Made by a program: the position numbers and the translations under genes. From the sequence record PZ534514.1: a DNA stretch of 51,676 nucleotides. One strand, written 5' to 3'. This DNA is from a phage. The notes under the pieces were generated by a model. It saw only the letters and a list, made by a program, of their open reading frames with translations. It did not search any database and was not told the origin of the DNA. Of this stretch, positions 7,832-45,562 are shown in pieces. How positions within the stretch are numbered: position 1 is the first letter of the stretch; each line of letters starts with the position of its first letter.

Positions 7832-10800
7832 TTACCACGTACCAGTAAGCCTACCAATCTGAACACGCAAGCGCCCGTTTGCGTCTCGTACACTTATCGT
7901 TTCATTTGTCAACTTCATGGCCCCTTCTCCAGATGTAGAACCGTAGTTCTCAAATCTTCCGCTTTTATCCAGCCTCCAACCCTGCTGATTGGCAACAAAG
8001 TTATTCGACTGAATATAATTACCGATCATAGCATTTGTGATTGAACCGTTTTTAACTAACAGGCTATTAATGAAAACTTGGTTGTTTTCAACAACAAAAG
8101 GCAAAGTAAACGTTCCGCCAGTCGAGCTAGTCATAATCGCGAACCTGTTCGCGTCAAACAAGATTTGCGAGATAAGGCCGGATGAACTCTGCGAAAGCTG
8201 CATTACCATTCCTGCGCTGTACTTCTGCCCGTTGTAAGTTAACCCAAGTTTCATTGAGTATTTAGCACCAACAGACGATACGCCAGCCCATGAATCAAGT
8301 TTTTGAGCTAATGCAGATTCAACGTCTCCAAACTTAGCTGTTAACGCCTGGTCAGCCTGTACCCTTGCCTCTGTCTCGTTAGCGATAGCCTGTTTCACTT
8401 CAGAGATGTTAGCCTCAACCTCAGTCTTAATGACTCCGTTTAAATCTTCGATCTCCTTTGTGAACTTCGCATCAAGCGCGTTAACGGCCTGCGCGCGCGC
8501 TTCTGACTCATTGGCAATGGTTTGATTCACCTGATTAATGCTTGCGGCTGTATCGCGTTTTACACCGTCAATTTCAGTTGTGAATTTTGAATCCAAAGCA
8601 TTTATTTGAGTTGCTCGCGTTTCAGATTCTGTGGCGATAGCCTCCTGCACTGTCTTTATACTTGAAACAATATCCTCGTCGATTGACGCCCTCAACTCTT
8701 CAATCTGCGTAACTCGCGCCTCAGTCTCTGTGGCTATAAGTTCAAGAGCGTGACCGTACTCAGCCTTTCTCTTTCCGTTTTGTACTCGCGTCCACTTAAT
8801 ATCAGCATCATTAGCAAGAGCATTCTGGATGATTGCTTGCGCCTGGTCCTTTATCTTGTTTGCACTGTCAATAGCGTTCTCTTTCAGATCCTGACCTGCT
8901 TCAGTGTCAAAAATCTTATCAAGAATATCTCCTAAAACAGCCTCCACATCATCTGAAGCCATACCTCTAACAAAATCAGTCCAGCCGGAAACGTTGCCGA
9001 TTCTGTCAACGCTGCGGATCCTATACCAGACAACATGACCAGCCGGAAGCGTACCGTGCCAGTATTCATATTGTGGATACGGGATCAGCGTTAGCAGGCT
9101 TGAGTTTTCAGCCGTTCCATCCGGCGACTGGTGAAGCTCAATGTATGCCGTGTCTCCGCTCCCTTCTGGCATACCCCACTTAACACGAATGCCAAACACC
9201 TCATTGTCTGACGCAGTTAAGTTAACTGGCGCGCCTGGCTCTCCTACCTTACCAGTCAGTGATGCTGTCACAATTCTGGACCACGGAGATGTAGAACCTG
9301 AAGCGGAAACAGATCTAACCCTTACCTGGTAGTTTCCTGAATAAATACCTTCAACCTCAATTTCTTTGTTTGCGGTCTGTGGTGTATTCAGCCAGTTGCC
9401 ATCACCTTTTCGCCATTGCATTTCATACAGCGATGCGTAAGGTACTTTATCCCACGACACAACCATTGTTTCAACGCTTGCACCCTGGACAATTCGCGAG
9501 TATGAGGATATTTGCACATTTTCAGGCGCTGCCATTGTGTCAGGCTGGACAATTGAAGTTGGCCTGTCGTCAATGTTTACTCCATAATCAATCTCGTCGT
9601 ATTTGTTCGGGTCATATTCAACAGCCGTGATGGAGTATGTAAATTCATCATCATCATCACCTTTGCCGATACTCGTTACAACGTATTGCTGCAATGCAAT
9701 ATCAGTGCGGTCGATTGCAAAAACCGTGTCAGGTTTAACTTCAAACCCAAACCCAATGTTTAGTTCAATGGTTTTTCCGTCACCGCTTACTTTTGAGATT
9801 GTGCGCTTAACTGGCTTTCCGTCCGGCTTGTTGATGATAATGAAATCACCTGGTCGCGCGTCAATCTTAAACGGAACGAACACCTGCAAGCCGGAAACTT
9901 CCATCACGCGCCCTGATAGGTTTAATTTAAGGTTGCTGCTGTGAAAATTGTCAGCAATAGCAATCACATCACCTATTGATGGGATCATGCCTTCCAGTCC
10001 AGTAGCAAAGTTTACCGTAGTGCTGCGCAAGTTGGTTTTCAGTATCCATCGACCGCGCCGATTAGCCTCACTCCTGCGTGTACATCCGATCGCGGTTATG
10101 CTTGTAGGATTGTATCCAAAGCGCAATGCGGCCTCTGTGTCGAATACACCCTCTACGTCCTGTTGATACATGTTTTGTTCGTCATCGAACGTCACGTTGC
10201 ACTGCGTGTACATGCTCTTTTCACTTGCTGTTGTGTACTGAAAATCACCATCAACAACATTGTCATTTGTGAAGATGTACGACGGATCGCGCGGCTTATC
10301 AATGACGATTGACAAGCTCTCTCCATTCCAAAAGCTCATGCCTCGGAAGATTGAGCAAATATCACGAATAAGCTGATAAGCCTCAATCTGGCTTTGAATC
10401 ACAACGTCGCATAGATAACGCGGCTCTGTACCGCCTTTCCCGTCAGGCACTTTCTGATCGCAGTATTGCGCCGCTTCGTAAAGACTCCATTTATCAACTT
10501 GTACACCAAGTTCTCGCTGATCTAATCCATATCGCTGGTTTGTGATAATGTCATAAAGCACCCACGCCGGATTATTCGACCACGCTTTCTTGAACGTGCC
10601 ATTCCATGAACCGTGATACTCTCTCAAAACAGGATCGTAGTTACTCGGAACGTTAATCAGCTTCCATTTCTTCTTGATTGAAATGTTAGGGATCTGATTT
10701 GGGAATAATTCGCTGTCAAATTCAACGTAAACAAGACCAGTCAGAGGATAACGGAATTTTGCATCAATAACCTCAGCGTAACTTTGTAGTTTAATCAGAT

Positions 10801-12799: not shown

Positions 12800-13560
12800 C
12801 ACTGATTTCTCCTTAACAGGCTTGCTACTGGTGCGCCGCCAAAATCAAGCTGCTTATCTGCACCAAAACGAAGTTTGCACGCTGTTACAGTTCCTGCGCA
12901 AAAGTCTTGAGATGGATCTTTTACAGGATTGTTGTCTTTGTCAAACATTCGCGACCCATTGTATCCGCAACCTTTTCCGCTTCGATACCATCCACGCTGC
13001 GCCCAATAACAAACGCTTTGAGTTATTCGCGGAGGAATCATTATTCCATCCATATCATAAGGCGATGTCAGGTCAAATTTCGCCATCATTCTATTGTAAT
13101 GGCTTGGGCGCTCAATGTAGTAAACCAGCTTTCTTGAAGCTCCATCTTTAATGCTGCCATCTTTCCCCATTAATTCCGCTGGCGTAATCCAGATTGTAAC
13201 CTTAGCTTGCATCATGCCGTTAAAGTTGCGAATCATCGCGCTCACCTGGCTATCAAGGTTTGATAGTATCAATTGTGGCTTATCAGCCTTTCCGTTGCTT
13301 GTGAAGTTGATTCCAGATATTCCGAACGGGCGCGCGCCGTAAACCTCACCACGGAATGTAATCTCTTTCGGCGGAAGAACTCCAGTTTCTCGCGCCTGCA
13401 ATAATTCTTCCGCAGTGTATGAGATGTTCTCATTGTGTATGCGGTAAATGTTTGCGCCAAACTTTGTGCCGTCAATCTCAATTAGCGTGATAATCTCGCC
13501 AGGGTAAAGGCTTTGCAGACAATTTTCAAGGTCCGCGCGACCTGTTGTTTCATTAGCCAT
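12799..13560 (-). CDS. Minor tail protein (lambda L-like)
   Basis: ATG at 13560 with RBS aaggaggtg; position between M-like and K-like genes. Confidence 0.75.
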   Translation of the reverse strand: MANETTGRADLENCLQSLYPGEIITLIEIDGTKFGANIYRIHNENISYTAEELLQARETGVLPPKEITFRGEVYGARPFGISGINFTSNGKADKPQLILSNLDSQVSAMIRNFNGMMQAKVTIWITPAELMGKDGSIKDGASRKLVYYIERPSHYNRMMAKFDLTSPYDMDGIMIPPRITQSVCYWAQRGWYRSGKGCGYNGSRMFDKDNNPVKDPSQDFCAGTVTACKLRFGADKQLDFGGAPVASLLRRNQ

Positions 13561-30923: not shown

Positions 30924-30969
30924 ATTATAGCGAGGCATTGCGCCCCGCTTTTAGCAATTCGTGCTATTT
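30924..30969 (-). promoter_or_regulatory. Promoter-like element, conserved motif family
   Basis: Minus strand AAATAGCACGAATTGCTAAAAG, 22 bp, TATAAT. Confidence 0.55.
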
Positions 30970-31554
30970 GATCTTAATGTGTTTCCACTGGACAGTTTTG
31001 ATGATCTCGTCAACTGTCTTTTCTGGATCTCCATCAGTCATTGTGAAGTCGTAATGTTTTATGCGGTGATGGTATCCGCTCAGGTCAATATAGTTTCGTG
31101 AATCGCCATCAAACGTGAAACCTTCGCGATGCAGTCGGCAAATGTGCACTTCATGGCCTGCCTTAACGAGCGGTTTGATTTCTTCAGGGAATCCGCCATC
31201 ACTAATTACAACAGCCAAATCCCTGTACATCTCGTGTACTTGTTCAACCATGCGATTTCCGAAATATTGCTCGCCAAAAGTTGGCTTCATGACGTCTTCA
31301 CTAATCCAGATCATGAACTGGCGCGGCGACTTGCCTTGCAAGATTGCTTGAGGCTTTTCTTTCTGCTTGCGGTCGTTATAAAGATCAATAAACTCGTCAT
31401 ATCGGTAAACGCCAAGCATGGAGAATGCAATATCAAACATAGGCTGTTTAAACGACGCTTTAACGGCTGCGTAACGATGACCCGTTAAGTATGCCGCAAG
31501 CGTATCCTTGCCAACTCCTGGCGGTCCGTTAAGGATGATAATGTCTCGCTTCAT
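30964..31554 (-). CDS. P-loop nucleotide kinase (T4 Dnk-like)
   Basis: ATG at 31554 with RBS ggag; Walker A GPPGVGKDT; overall pattern resembles T4 deoxynucleoside monophosphate kinase. Confidence 0.65.
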   Translation of the reverse strand: MKRDIIILNGPPGVGKDTLAAYLTGHRYAAVKASFKQPMFDIAFSMLGVYRYDEFIDLYNDRKQKEKPQAILQGKSPRQFMIWISEDVMKPTFGEQYFGNRMVEQVHEMYRDLAVVISDGGFPEEIKPLVKAGHEVHICRLHREGFTFDGDSRNYIDLSGYHHRIKHYDFTMTDGDPEKTVDEIIKTVQWKHIKIK

Positions 31555-31555
31555 A

Positions 31556-31693
31556 TTAGTTTTCTCCATATCTGCTTGAATGTTTACCTGGGCGCTGCCG
31601 CTTCTTGCGATAGCGTTGATTCATCTCGCGGTGCTCGTCGTAGCTGTAGCGCTTTTTCTTGGTTACGATTTTTTCGAAGTTTCGCATCTTCAT
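31556..31693 (-). CDS. Small basic protein (45 aa)
   Basis: ATG at 31693 with RBS aggag; Lys/Arg-rich; not in ORF track because under 60 aa. Confidence 0.4.
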   Translation of the reverse strand: MKMRNFEKIVTKKKRYSYDEHREMNQRYRKKRQRPGKHSSRYGEN

Positions 31694-32422: not shown

Positions 32423-32962
32423 TCATTTCAATTCCTCCACGCCATGCGATTGGATATGATTATGTGGCTTGTCGTATTCCGTGACCTGATAGGTTGTGAT
32501 TCCCAGGCTGCGGAAGTGCTTAACCACGTTCGGAGAATCATCAAAAGCACACACTATGTTTTCCAGTCCGATAGCGCGCAAGACTTCTTCTTTGATGATT
32601 GTGTCTTTGCGGTTGTCTTCCTTGCGGCGCATGATTAACGCATCGTACTTGATGCCGTTTTCGTTAAGCCATTTGCAGGTGTCCTCCATTACTTCATCGC
32701 TGCGTCCGGTAAGGATAACGATGGCAAATCCAGACATCCACAAACCGTTAACCACTGCAACCGTGCTCTTAATCGGCGAATCGCCAACAGCCGCCTTATT
32801 GAACTCAGACCAGCTTTCTGTAAGGTGCAAATCTTCTGTAGGAAGCAGGTGCAAGCGATGCGTTCCGTCTGATAACGTTCCGTCCAGGTCAACGATAACA
32901 ATCGGCTTGGAAGTGGAAAAATGGTATTTGCTGCTCCAAAGTTCAAATTCGTATTTTTTCAT
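32423..32962 (-). CDS. HAD-family phosphatase, T4 Pnk 3'-phosphatase-domain-like
   Basis: ATG at 32962; DxDGT motif IVIVDLDGTLSD, ILTGR and RKDTIIKEEV...AFDDSPNVV blocks parallel the T4 Pnk phosphatase domain. Confidence 0.7.
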   Translation of the reverse strand: MKKYEFELWSSKYHFSTSKPIVIVDLDGTLSDGTHRLHLLPTEDLHLTESWSEFNKAAVGDSPIKSTVAVVNGLWMSGFAIVILTGRSDEVMEDTCKWLNENGIKYDALIMRRKEDNRKDTIIKEEVLRAIGLENIVCAFDDSPNVVKHFRSLGITTYQVTEYDKPHNHIQSHGVEELK

Positions 32963-32973
32963 TATCAAACCTA

Positions 32974-33195
32974 TCAATTAAAATGAATTTGCTTGTATTC
33001 GATTTCATCTGCCAGATCATTTAACTTATCCGCCAGCTTGCGCACCTGGTCAATGGTGAGTATCGACCTAAAATCCGGCCTGCGCCCACCTTCAAACGTG
33101 ACATCAATAAACACACGGTCGCCGAACTTGTATACCTCAAGCGCATCGCCATGATTATCAATAAACTTGTGTTTAACGCGCTTATTTGTCTCCAT
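32974..33195 (-). CDS. Hypothetical protein
   Basis: 73-aa ORF. Confidence 0.5.
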   Translation of the reverse strand: METNKRVKHKFIDNHGDALEVYKFGDRVFIDVTFEGGRRPDFRSILTIDQVRKLADKLNDLADEIEYKQIHFN

Positions 33196-40715: not shown

Positions 40716-40743
40716 TGCCGCATCAAAAAAGGAGTTATCATCA

Positions 40744-42327
40744 ATGAATTTTTCGTTTGAAACCAATAAACTAACACCAAAACAAATTATCGAATTAGCT
40801 GATGCACAAGGATTGTCTCCGGTGCGCGTGTCCATTCAGGCAAACGGATACCGTCAATCGTCCAGCTTTTGGGGTGAGGTTAATGATGTTAATAACGGAA
40901 ACGATCGCTACCCTGTAATTTCTCTTGGCAATGATGTTGATGTTGTTGGAAAGTTGGCGCGCAACATTGCTCGATCTGTTCAATTCCCTGAATCATCGGC
41001 ATATATGCATTTTATCGGATGTGTGTCTGCTGCAATGCTTGGACGCTTCACTGTTGAGTATCACGGAACGGATCAGCCGACCGCTCTTTATGTTGTTACA
41101 AGCCAGCCTCCTTCAACTGGTAAATCTGCCGTTAACAGCCTGGCACTTGCTCCAATGGTTGCGGAAGTGGAAAGAATTAACGATCAGCGAAAGAAGGAAA
41201 GAAAAAAGATTCAGGCAAAGTTGGCAGGTCTTACAAAAGAGATGAAAAGCGAGCGCTCCGGCGCTGATATGGAATCTCTGTACCAGGAGAAAGAAGATCT
41301 GGAAGAAAAACTGGAAAAGATGTGTGACATCGTTTTCCCTGTGTCCGACACAACGCCGGAAGGACTTGCAAGAATCAACAATCGCCAGGGTAACTTTGCT
41401 GTGATTTCAGACGAGGCAACGAGTATTAACAGCCTTTTAGGTCTGACATATGCCAATAGCGAACGTAAAACCAACAGCGAACTTGTGCTGAAAGCATGGG
41501 ATCATGGTCATGTTTCTATAGCTCGTGCAAACGCTGACAACAATATGAGTTTTAAAGCTCTTGGCTGTATGGCGGTAATTGCCCAGGATGAAACAATCAA
41601 TGCCATCATGGATGCAGGATCGCGCGGTATCGGTGTAAGTGAGCGTTATTTGCTTGTGCGTGAGGAATCATTTTTAGGTCGTCGAAAGTTTGTTGATGAT
41701 AACGGTGATTCGACTTATGAGCCTGTTGATGGAGAACTGAAAAGTCAATATTTTAAGCTGATCCATAACATCATGAGTGAATCAAACATCCAGCTTAAGA
41801 TCAGCAAATCAGCAATGCGAGTTCTTAACATGGCTCGTCAGGAGATGGAGCCGCACCTTGCTGATGGAGGAAAGTATTCGCATACAATGCTGCGCGGTGC
41901 GCTTGGAAAAATGGATAAGCAGGTGATCAGGATTGCTTCGGTTTTGCACACTATCCGCAATTGGTTTAATCCTGGCGGATACCCTCAAAAGTCGAAAGAG
42001 ATTGAGGTTGAAACCGTTCAGGAAGCATTGCTGATGTTTAGCGAGTTGAGCAAAACATACATTAGCGCCGCCAACGCTTCTGGCTACGCTGGTGATGATG
42101 CTGAAATGGGTAAACTAATCGAGATCATCACTCGACACGGCAAGGCTAATAAGGGAATCTTGAATGTTCGCGCCATATATGAGGCTGCACGAAAAGTTAA
42201 GCCGTTTGTTGGTCAGGCTGGCGTAATGAAGCGCATGGAAACGCAACTGCTTCCGATGCTTGAGGAAAGAAATTATATTTGTGTGATTAATGGCGTTGTT
42301 TTCGTAAATCCAACATTGCTGGGGTAA
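40744..42327 (+). CDS. P-loop NTPase-like early protein of unknown function (527 aa)
   Basis: RBS aaaggag; Walker A-like SQPPSTGKSAV; charged coiled-coil segment after it. Confidence 0.7.
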   Translation: MNFSFETNKLTPKQIIELADAQGLSPVRVSIQANGYRQSSSFWGEVNDVNNGNDRYPVISLGNDVDVVGKLARNIARSVQFPESSAYMHFIGCVSAAMLGRFTVEYHGTDQPTALYVVTSQPPSTGKSAVNSLALAPMVAEVERINDQRKKERKKIQAKLAGLTKEMKSERSGADMESLYQEKEDLEEKLEKMCDIVFPVSDTTPEGLARINNRQGNFAVISDEATSINSLLGLTYANSERKTNSELVLKAWDHGHVSIARANADNNMSFKALGCMAVIAQDETINAIMDAGSRGIGVSERYLLVREESFLGRRKFVDDNGDSTYEPVDGELKSQYFKLIHNIMSESNIQLKISKSAMRVLNMARQEMEPHLADGGKYSHTMLRGALGKMDKQVIRIASVLHTIRNWFNPGGYPQKSKEIEVETVQEALLMFSELSKTYISAANASGYAGDDAEMGKLIEIITRHGKANKGILNVRAIYEAARKVKPFVGQAGVMKRMETQLLPMLEERNYICVINGVVFVNPTLLG

Positions 42328-43959: not shown

Positions 43960-44105
43960 GATTAGATCTCCTGTATATAAAAGTCAACAATTAATTGATT
44001 GTATCCTAACCATTGAACGCACAAAAAGGAATAAAAAAAGGGCGAAGCAAAATGCCACGCCCAATTAAATTGATGATTTATATTTATATTTCAATGATTA
44101 AAAGT

Positions 44106-45221
44106 TCAACCAGCCATTTCTGGATAATGCATAAATCGCCCGACTTCTCCGTATTCTTTATCGTAAACAATAACAGCCGCACGGCGACGAGAACGCCACC
44201 CACCGCGCGCCGCATATGCATCTTTTGCCGCCATAGTGCTATGCACTTCAACAATGCCCAGGCTTGTTTCAGTTACTGTCTGATGATGCCAGTGCCCTAC
44301 GTGAGCATACATCATTTTTGAATTGCCGAAGTCTTCGCGCCAGTCTGCCGCGCACATCATTAGCAATGTTTCAGGTTTGCGGATAGTATGCCCGTGATGG
44401 TATGCCAGGAACGTTTTGCCATATTGTGTGTGATGAACTACTCGCGGAGACACATCAACATGCACACGCGGCTCATTCTCATATGCTGCCGCCATTGCTG
44501 CGCGCAACCAGATCATGCCGCTTTGGTCGTGGTTTCCTTCAATAATCTGAATCTCGACGTTTTTGTGTTTTGATAACAGCTTTGTAATTGCTCGACGCAC
44601 TGACCGAATGGCAACGTAGACCAGTTTTGCGTATCGACTATCTTGATCCAATACGTGACCGCTTGCAGGTGTTACCGCTTCCAGTCCGTCGCTGTGAAGC
44701 ATATCACCACCAATCAGCAAGACAGCTTTTTCACTATCCGGCGCGCACTGGATGGAATAATCAATGAAATTATTCATTACGCGCTCTGCTGTTGCTGTAT
44801 CCCAATTCTCGCCGCATTCATGCTTATGCGCCATTGCTCCCAGGTGCATATCAAAGATCGGATACAGTGATAACGTCTCGCTATAATCATTTTGTGATTC
44901 TTGCTGTGGATCAAGTCGAGGAACTTCTTCGCTAAATGCATCCATAGCGGCCTGCATTAATGCTTCTAACTGTTCGCGGTCCTTACTTGTCTTAACCCAT
45001 GTCATAACCACATTGCCATCTTTATCAATTAGCTTTGATTCTCCAGTAACACCAAAACCAGGTGATCCGATGGTTGTAACTTTACCTTGCTTTGCTAATC
45101 GTGCCGCGCGGCGCTCAATGCTGCGAACGTTCATACCATACTCATTAGCGATCTGCTTATATGTCTTTCCCTGCTTGCGCTCATTGATAAATTGTTCATC
45201 TGTGATTTTGATTTGCTTCAT
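44106..45221 (-). CDS. Calcineurin-like metallophosphoesterase with N-terminal HTH
   Basis: ATG at 45221 with RBS aaggag; GDMLHSDG and EGNHDQ motifs; HTH-like YKQIANEYGMNVRSIERR. Confidence 0.7.
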   Translation of the reverse strand: MKQIKITDEQFINERKQGKTYKQIANEYGMNVRSIERRAARLAKQGKVTTIGSPGFGVTGESKLIDKDGNVVMTWVKTSKDREQLEALMQAAMDAFSEEVPRLDPQQESQNDYSETLSLYPIFDMHLGAMAHKHECGENWDTATAERVMNNFIDYSIQCAPDSEKAVLLIGGDMLHSDGLEAVTPASGHVLDQDSRYAKLVYVAIRSVRRAITKLLSKHKNVEIQIIEGNHDQSGMIWLRAAMAAAYENEPRVHVDVSPRVVHHTQYGKTFLAYHHGHTIRKPETLLMMCAADWREDFGNSKMMYAHVGHWHHQTVTETSLGIVEVHSTMAAKDAYAARGGWRSRRRAAVIVYDKEYGEVGRFMHYPEMAG

Positions 45222-45319
45222 CAAAAATTCTCCTTATCTCATTATGACAACATATACAATAGAGATCGCCATCATAACAGGTAAGGGCAAAAGTAACAAA
45301 CGCCACATGATAACAATCC

Positions 45320-45562
45320 TCATTTGTAGTATTTGCGCGGCTCGCGAATTTTCGCCATAGCCTCTTTGAAATCAATCTTTGTTGGTATTGCAGGTACGCG
45401 ATGCATTTTGCGCGGTCGTTCATTGAGAAATGTCATTTTGTCGCCGCTTATAATGCTTATGTCAGCAATATCAAAATATTTTGCTATCCTGGCTATATCT
45501 TCAGAGATCCCACACTCCTTTGCGTGATCCCATACGGCCTGCCTACCTTGTTCAACCTTCAT
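45320..45562 (-). CDS. Hypothetical protein
   Basis: ATG at 45562 overlapping the upstream small ORF stop; 80 aa. Confidence 0.45.
   Translation of the reverse strand: MKVEQGRQAVWDHAKECGISEDIARIAKYFDIADISIISGDKMTFLNERPRKMHRVPAIPTKIDFKEAMAKIREPRKYYK

Follow-up and report, generated by a model that had tools for sequence, protein, structure and literature searches.

Bacteriophage T5 encodes A1, a predicted metallophosphatase that has been reported to be both required and sufficient for the degradation of host DNA (bioRxiv 10.64898/2026.04.02.716235). A second phage protein of this general kind, the product of Bas01_0050 from the BASEL phage Bas1 (AugustePiccard), was described through the reverse-transcriptase defence DRT7/UG10. 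Bas1 mutants that escaped DRT7 had missense mutations or frameshifts in Bas01_0050, the gene was toxic in E. coli, which made its co-expression with DRT7 impossible, and the authors called its product "putatively a nucleic acid-targeting phosphoesterase" (bioRxiv 10.64898/2026.02.16.706125). Together, the escape mutations and the toxicity indicate that Bas01_0050 is not required for plaque formation, harms the host when present alone and is needed for the action of DRT7. This preprint was the sole functional lead that we found: the literature on T1 host DNA degradation, T1 gp16 and Drexlerviridae phosphoesterases yielded genome notes only, and we found no biochemical study of any member of PHROG 704, the family to which Bas01_0050 belongs. 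The papers on Metis and PUA-Cal-HAD, which deal with the sensing of host-DNA degradation, hold no Drexlerviridae data.

The gene at the end of the leftward unit

The stretch of DNA that we analysed (51,676 bp; hereafter, the window) is essentially the whole genome of a T1-like phage (Drexlerviridae, Tempevirinae, Hanrivervirus), and the 1.8 kb around the gene studied here showed 97.6% identity to Escherichia phage phiE31-2 and 97.3% identity to Shigella phage pSf-1. The gene encodes a helix-turn-helix (HTH)-metallophosphoesterase (MPE) protein (Table 1). An AAGGAG RBS lies 8 nt before its ATG, and an in-frame TTG at 45224, one codon upstream, is an alternative start. Residues 6-371 of the protein, with the HTH included, matched positions 3-389 of the 390 positions in the PHROG 704 profile (E=5e-151). 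The gene is a member of PHROG 704 and an orthologue of T1 gp16 (ST16, YP_003929.1) and Bas01_0050; the window protein is 57% identical over its full length to gp16, which occupies the same syntenic slot, and 59% identical, again over its full length, to the syntenic Bas01_0050. All three have the same HTH-adaptor-MPE architecture with no material difference. Public databases already hold proteins with 98-99% identity, labelled "putative phosphoesterase" or "DNA repair exonuclease"; the latter term, which is also the name of PHROG 704, is a putative annotation. The window gene is a bona fide, routine member of a very large and already catalogued phage family, and on its own it adds nothing new to the PHROG 704/T1 gp16 family.

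The leftward unit begins with the SF2 helicase gene, continues through VRR-NUC, Dam and several small ORFs, and has the HTH-MPE gene as its last member. The intrinsic terminator that follows (RNA fold dG -14.6 kcal/mol, z -3.2) is in turn followed by the holin, endolysin and spanin genes. T1, Bas01 and the window share the order of helicase, VRR-NUC, Dam, small ORFs, HTH-MPE gene, terminator and lysis cassette; the layout in T1 is identical, with a rho-independent terminator annotated after gene 16. The original prediction had placed the gene first in the leftward replication operon. This was wrong: the gene is the tail, with the helicase first and the terminator and lysis cassette behind it.

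We also observed a second terminator-like hairpin on the minus strand (45787-45769; GCCCGAC...GTCGGGC plus an A/T-rich tail), which sits between the ORF at 45804-46043 and a 59-aa ORF, a position matching that of the terminator annotated after gene 19 in T1. With this hairpin, the leftward "replication operon" seems to be punctuated into sub-units, which suggests that the last four ORFs (the 59-aa ORF, an 80-aa ORF, a micro-ORF and the HTH-MPE gene) form a cassette of their own. A sigma-70-like promoter match at 45299-45271 was discounted as the HTH-MPE gene's own promoter because it lies inside the conserved micro-ORF and promoter-like matches were no more common than in shuffled sequences (11 versus 14.6 expected).

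The micro-ORF encodes MRIVIMWRLLLLPLPVMMAISIVYVVIMR, which comprises 29 aa when read from the ATG at 45323 or 24 aa when read from the ATG at 45308. The ATG at 45323 shares the sequence ATGA with the upstream stop codon, and the stop codon of the micro-ORF falls within the RBS of the HTH-MPE gene. Peptides of 21-25 aa (Kyte-Doolittle means of 1.4-2.5) are encoded at the same position in T1 (40740-40811, unannotated), Bas01 (12919-12993) and approximately 20 Drexlerviridae-type IMG/VR loci, and the position is kept although the DNA is divergent. The ORF has been annotated sporadically, for example in ESh4. It was absent from the lambdoid prophage and the other lineages compared, and we found no description of it in the literature searched. 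The micro-ORF may be functionally tied to the HTH-MPE gene.

Small membrane-protein genes were repeatedly located just upstream of HTH/MPE-type genes in other phages as well, paralleling the Drexlerviridae micro-ORF. In T5 (1706-3670), T5.005, with two TM segments, precedes A1, and in the Guernseyvirinae (SETP3 and fPoEco01, at about 4630-6140), a "superinfection immunity" membrane protein precedes the PHROG 704 gene. A membrane-protein gene and an HTH/MPE gene may constitute a functional pair.

Table 1. Features of the HTH-MPE gene and the leftward unit in the window (AF2, AlphaFold2)
Feature	Coordinates	Strand	Details
SF2 helicase	49341-47230	-	Leftward unit
VRR-NUC	47276-46824	-	Leftward unit, after helicase
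Dam	46749-46048	-	Leftward unit, after VRR-NUC
Conserved hydrophobic micro-ORF, single-TM-like peptide	45234..45323	-	Directly upstream of the HTH-MPE gene
HTH-metallophosphoesterase CDS	44106..45221	-	371 aa; ATG at 45221, TGA at 44106-44108
N-terminal three-helix HTH, predicted DNA-binding	45090..45200	-	Residues 8-44; AF2 structure and profiles
Linker		-	Residues 45-55; lower AF2 confidence (pLDDT dips to 60-69)
Adaptor: beta-hairpin (residues 56-80) and helix (residues 82-97)	44931..45056	-	AF2 secondary structure
Binuclear metallophosphoesterase core, nuclease-type	44109..44876	-	Residues 116-371
Intrinsic terminator	44033..44062	-	Hairpin 44062-44040, then U7 tract 44039-44033

Domain architecture of the protein

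Homologues of the window protein matching at E<=1e-3 form 4620 clusters at 50% identity, from which we took 127 representatives with 30-80% identity and aligned them with the window protein. All five MPE motifs were present in the latter: motif I as D124-M-H126, motif II as GDMLHSDG (residues 172-179), motif III as GNHD (residues 229-232), motif IV as H276 (in YHHGH) and motif V as G309-H310-W-H312. The alignment of 128 sequences showed that D124, H126, D173, N230, H231, H276, G309 and H312 were invariant and that H176, H310 and D232 were conserved at 90% or more. Using this alignment, AlphaFold2 produced a model with a mean pLDDT of 93.7 (96-98 over residues 116-371), in which the core adopted the beta-sandwich MPE fold. 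The Pfam Metallophos model (PF00149) scored only 14.2 bits against a gathering cut-off of 21.5 (E=0.063) and was matched at E<=0.01 by only 27 out of 128 relatives; the PHROG 704 family is too divergent for it. Because this score is sub-threshold, the motifs and the fold are the basis for assigning the window protein to the calcineurin-like metallophosphoesterase superfamily. The original prediction had assigned it there from GDxxHSDG and GNHD, and the five motifs, the ligands invariant in 128 relatives and the AF2 fold bear this out. Of the profile search proposed at that time as a check, the Metallophos part gave only the sub-threshold score, with motifs and fold supplying the superfamily assignment, and the SbcD/Mre11 part did not lead to membership.

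A search of PDB sequences with the window protein alone returned nothing useful. Structural comparison identified nucleases as the nearest folds, with DP1, Mre11 and SbcD as top neighbours. In motif II, Mre11 has GDLFH, which is of the GDxxH form, whereas SbcD, LpxH and PPP enzymes have Asp at the position of the His. The core of the window protein ends 59 residues past motif V and the AF2 model contains no further domain; thus, there is no capping domain. By contrast with Mre11/SbcD nucleases, including T4 gp47 and T5 D12/D13-type proteins, the window protein therefore lacks a C-terminal capping domain and has an N-terminal HTH instead, and sequence similarity to these nucleases was marginal (E of about 0.4-1.5 for the family profile against PDB sequences). 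No Rad50/SbcC partner was found in the complete T1 annotation, the 13.8 kb phiE31-2 annotation or the scanned window ORFs. Membership in the Mre11/SbcD family is unsupported, given the lack of both the capping domain and an SbcC/Rad50 partner.

The archaeal PolD subunit DP1, a 3'-5' proofreading exonuclease, showed 14% identity to the window protein, which differs from it in having neither an OB fold nor a DP2 partner: the N-terminal region consists of the HTH and the beta-hairpin/helix, not an OB fold. According to the complete T1 annotation, this phage type has no polymerase gene. The ligase-associated MPE nuclease PdeM (TIGR04123; PDB 6NVO) is, like the window protein, a small MPE without a capping domain; the match to PdeM was local, around motif III (E=3e-4), and reached 20 bits in NCBIfam, where the cut-off is 150. 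The motifs GDxVDRG and GNHE of PPP Ser/Thr phosphatases are absent from the window protein, which also has no close PPP fold. A regulatory protein phosphatase, one of two functions originally suggested, is for this reason not favoured. The other suggestion, a DNA repair nuclease, fared better in part: motif II of the GDxxH form favours a nuclease, and without a capping domain or partner, the SbcD/Mre11 type has no support.

Between motifs II and III, we noticed a family-specific and near-invariant insert, VTPxSGHxLDxDxR (residues 183-196; region labelled window 44187-44212), whose conserved positions are T184, P185, L191, D192, D194 and R196. We did not see such an insert noted for Mre11, SbcD or DP1. 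It is a candidate substrate-binding loop, and it is conserved enough to be used as a search pattern for related loci; a 26-sequence subset was used here.

At the N-terminus, AF2 placed helices at residues 8-16, 21-27 and 32-44 with pLDDT values of 92-96, forming a three-helix bundle with helix-turn-helix geometry of the tri-helical class (LuxR/GerE, sigma-70 region 4, resolvase-type). The window protein itself matched HTH_28 at E=0.0026, under the gathering cut-off. Its relatives matched various HTH Pfam models, the best being Sigma70_r4_2 (1.5e-9) and GerE (2.4e-8), and GerE and RhlR ranked first when the family profile was compared with PDB sequences. Within the adaptor, G69 and W75 were nearly invariant among relatives. 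At least 100 residues precede motif I in 138 out of the 144 cluster representatives in which motif I was located (96%), and the HTH is the ancestral and near-universal architecture of the PHROG 704 family. The original prediction of an N-terminal HTH-like segment, which was to be abandoned if structure prediction showed no HTH, is upheld by both the structure prediction and the profiles. The accompanying remark that a DNA-binding domain is an unusual fusion partner has to be withdrawn, since such an HTH is the rule in this family and recurs in the T5 A1 family.

Distribution and genomic context of the family

Using tblastn, we found the protein in 2042 out of 50,697 phage records, 1954 of which covered at least 80% of its length. 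Carriers include T1-like, Jersey-like, Dhillon-like and N4-like phages and many marine phages. In Drexlerviridae, the gene always lies ahead of the lysis cassette. In Guernseyvirinae (Jersey, Kagunavirus), it occupies a small, moron-like rightward island within the tail genes, which in SETP3 contains the superinfection-immunity gene, the HTH-MPE gene, a small ORF and Rha/ANT, in that order. In the replication module of lambdoid E. coli prophages, it is flanked by Rha/ANT and DnaB; this prophage variant was present in 35 out of 5426 complete E. coli genomes. The gene comes after dCTP deaminase and thymidylate synthase in an N4-like roseophage, and in Thermus phage Lalka8 it heads a run of exonuclease, nucleotidase, dNMP kinase and RNA ligase genes. 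Scanning three genes on each side in 25 lineages sharing <75% identity, we found polynucleotide kinase/phosphatase, exonuclease (PHROG 107), dNMP kinase, dATP/dGTP pyrophosphohydrolase and nucleotide kinase genes as recurrent neighbours beside lysis genes. Searches with PADLOC and other defence-related models gave no matches.

The window phage itself encodes a RecE-like exonuclease, Erf and a dNMP kinase (30964-31569, minus strand; PHROG 139, E=1e-51). Its "polynucleotide kinase" homologue (32423-32977, minus strand) aligned only to positions 153-292 of the 295 in PHROG 505, that is, to the C-terminal part, which we take to be the phosphatase half of T4 Pnkp and not the kinase half. We considered whether the MPE might supply a missing phosphatase domain to the phage PNK and dropped this idea because of the match to C-terminal PHROG 505.

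Two unrelated backgrounds combine the HTH-MPE gene with a Rha/ANT-type antirepressor gene. The antirepressor gene is directly upstream in lambdoid prophages (7224-10559), where a Lin1244_N replication-organiser gene and DnaB flank the pair, and two genes downstream in Jerseyvirus SETP3 (4989-7227). This association suggests that the two genes either travel as a mobile cassette or are functionally linked. Separately, 20 "Campylobacter phage" records (for example, MG065667.1, A127) and "Streptococcus phage MBBL140" were found to carry T1-like sequence, with proteins showing 79-91% identity to the window protein. These host labels look questionable, and contamination or mis-assignment may lie behind them.

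Candidate functions and comparison with T5 A1

From the sequence, the structural model and the analogies with other phages, we propose that the HTH-MPE protein is an accessory, DNA-tethered two-metal phage nuclease with host DNA as its most likely target, a reading to which we would give an even chance. Expressed from a gene that sits last in the leftward early/replication unit, packed tightly behind the membrane micro-ORF, the protein would be tethered to double-stranded DNA by its flexible N-terminal HTH, and its C-terminal two-metal MPE, of the Mre11/SbcD/PolD-DP1 structural class, would hydrolyse phosphodiester bonds. Attack on host DNA would then contribute to host takeover or shut-off and provide dNMPs for the phage's own dNMP kinase, which would give the protein the role in T1-like phages that A1 has in T5. 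We favour a nuclease because a conserved HTH sits on a flexible tether, the catalytic centre is fully conserved, the motif II His is Mre11-like, the nearest folds are those of nucleases, the orthologue is toxic to the uninfected host and dNMP-salvage genes recur as neighbours. That the substrate is DNA and the physiological target the host chromosome is what we infer from this combination. Some observations speak against a host-DNA target. The PHROG 704 family is also found in temperate lambdoid prophages, and breakdown of host DNA is unusual for temperate phages; the heterogeneous genomic contexts, from Drexlerviridae lysis genes to the Guernseyvirinae island, argue against a single role as a "host-genome shredder". 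In the 2004 T1 genome paper, host DNA degradation was reportedly ascribed to HNH endonucleases, not to gp16.

The toxicity of the orthologue and the escape from DRT7 fit other DNA-end or RecBCD-related activities equally well. The protein could be a recombination, repair or replication nuclease acting on phage DNA, either at ends, hairpins and stalled forks in the manner of SbcD, Mre11 and T4 gp47 or as a DP1-like 3'-5' exonuclease that aids replication in a phage lacking a polymerase. DP1, Mre11 and SbcD being the top structural neighbours would agree with this, as would the gene's place in the replication unit here and in T1, its position immediately upstream of DnaB in lambdoid prophages and the database name "DNA repair exonuclease". 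However, the SbcC/Rad50-like partner expected of such an enzyme is missing from the T1 genome, the phiE31-2 region and the scanned window ORFs, as are the capping domain, OB fold and DP2 partner; the phage already has its RecE-like exonuclease and Erf; phages with a frameshifted orthologue are viable, and this protein is toxic by itself; and in Guernseyvirinae the gene lies outside the replication module. We therefore regard a role on phage DNA as unlikely, if far from negligible. The nucleotide-metabolism neighbours would also suit an enzyme that leaves DNA undegraded and works as a phosphodiesterase or phosphatase on small nucleotides or nucleic-acid ends, whether as an anti-defence enzyme destroying cyclic (oligo)nucleotides, as a nucleotide-pool enzyme or in the healing of 3'-phosphate or 2',3'-cyclic-phosphate ends together with the phage PNK/phosphatase. 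A conserved HTH for DNA binding would be hard to explain in such an enzyme, nucleases gave the best structural matches, an anti-defence enzyme that degrades signals would not be expected to harm the uninfected host, and the defence-model searches were negative, so that even taken jointly these variants seem improbable. Least supported, and in our estimate very improbable indeed, is a transcriptional regulator or regulatory protein phosphatase whose HTH would act on promoters or RNA polymerase and whose MPE would be regulatory or dephosphorylating. The resemblance of the HTH to sigma-70 region 4 and LuxR/GerE domains points in this direction, some records label homologues "transcriptional regulator" or "Ser/Thr phosphatase", and phage lambda encodes a protein phosphatase of the MPE fold; the PPP motifs, as noted above, are missing.

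If the protein is a host-DNA nuclease, a function would be assigned to the very common annotation "DNA repair exonuclease/phosphoesterase", the toxicity of the orthologue and the escape from DRT7 upon its loss would be explained, and host takeover by T1-like and T5-like phages would be linked through a shared HTH-plus-metallophosphoesterase design. The family concerned is widespread and is now linked to a defence system, DRT7. A broader picture, which we put forward tentatively and consider rather doubtful as a whole, is that the HTH-MPE protein, possibly together with the micro-peptide, is the host-DNA-degradation/takeover factor of T1-like phages and their counterpart of T5 A1, that HTH-tethered MPE nucleases are a general, recurrent phage weapon and that the resulting DNA products or ends are sensed by DRT7-like defences.

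Comparison with T5 A1 revealed both likenesses and differences. A1 is a pre-early protein made before DNA replication, which resembles the placement of the window gene in an early unit, and, as in Drexlerviridae, its gene is immediately preceded by one for a small membrane protein. The invariant motifs in the C-terminal part of A1 (GDIH, SNHD, HGH, GHTH) follow the same pattern, and this part likewise ends soon after motif V. A1 is toxic or degrades DNA when expressed alone, and the orthologue Bas01_0050 is toxic too. By contrast, A1 comprises 556 aa, of which approximately 200 aa form an additional middle region, and itself matches PHROG 1745 only, not PHROG 704. Second-step DNA transfer makes A1 essential in T5; the T1-family orthologue, by comparison, can carry frameshifts. 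Single-sequence and profile-profile comparisons with A1 using hhalign gave probabilities of only 16-25%, with approximately 54 columns around motif III aligned, and a BFVD fold search returned no 556-aa target among its top 50, so A1 was not recognised there (many targets were unnamed). On the hhalign probability, membership in the T5 A1 family (PHROG 1745) was rejected and the analogy was kept. Relatives of A1 (approximately 46% identity, approximately 530 aa) in many cases have an HTH in place of the A1 N-terminus, with matches to HTH_23 in 9, HTH_38 in 7 and HTH_7 in 5 out of the 35 scanned; the HTH-plus-MPE design recurs in this second, barely related phage family. Thus, T5 A1 would be the closest functional analogue of the window protein, which would work like A1 and is not a member of its family.
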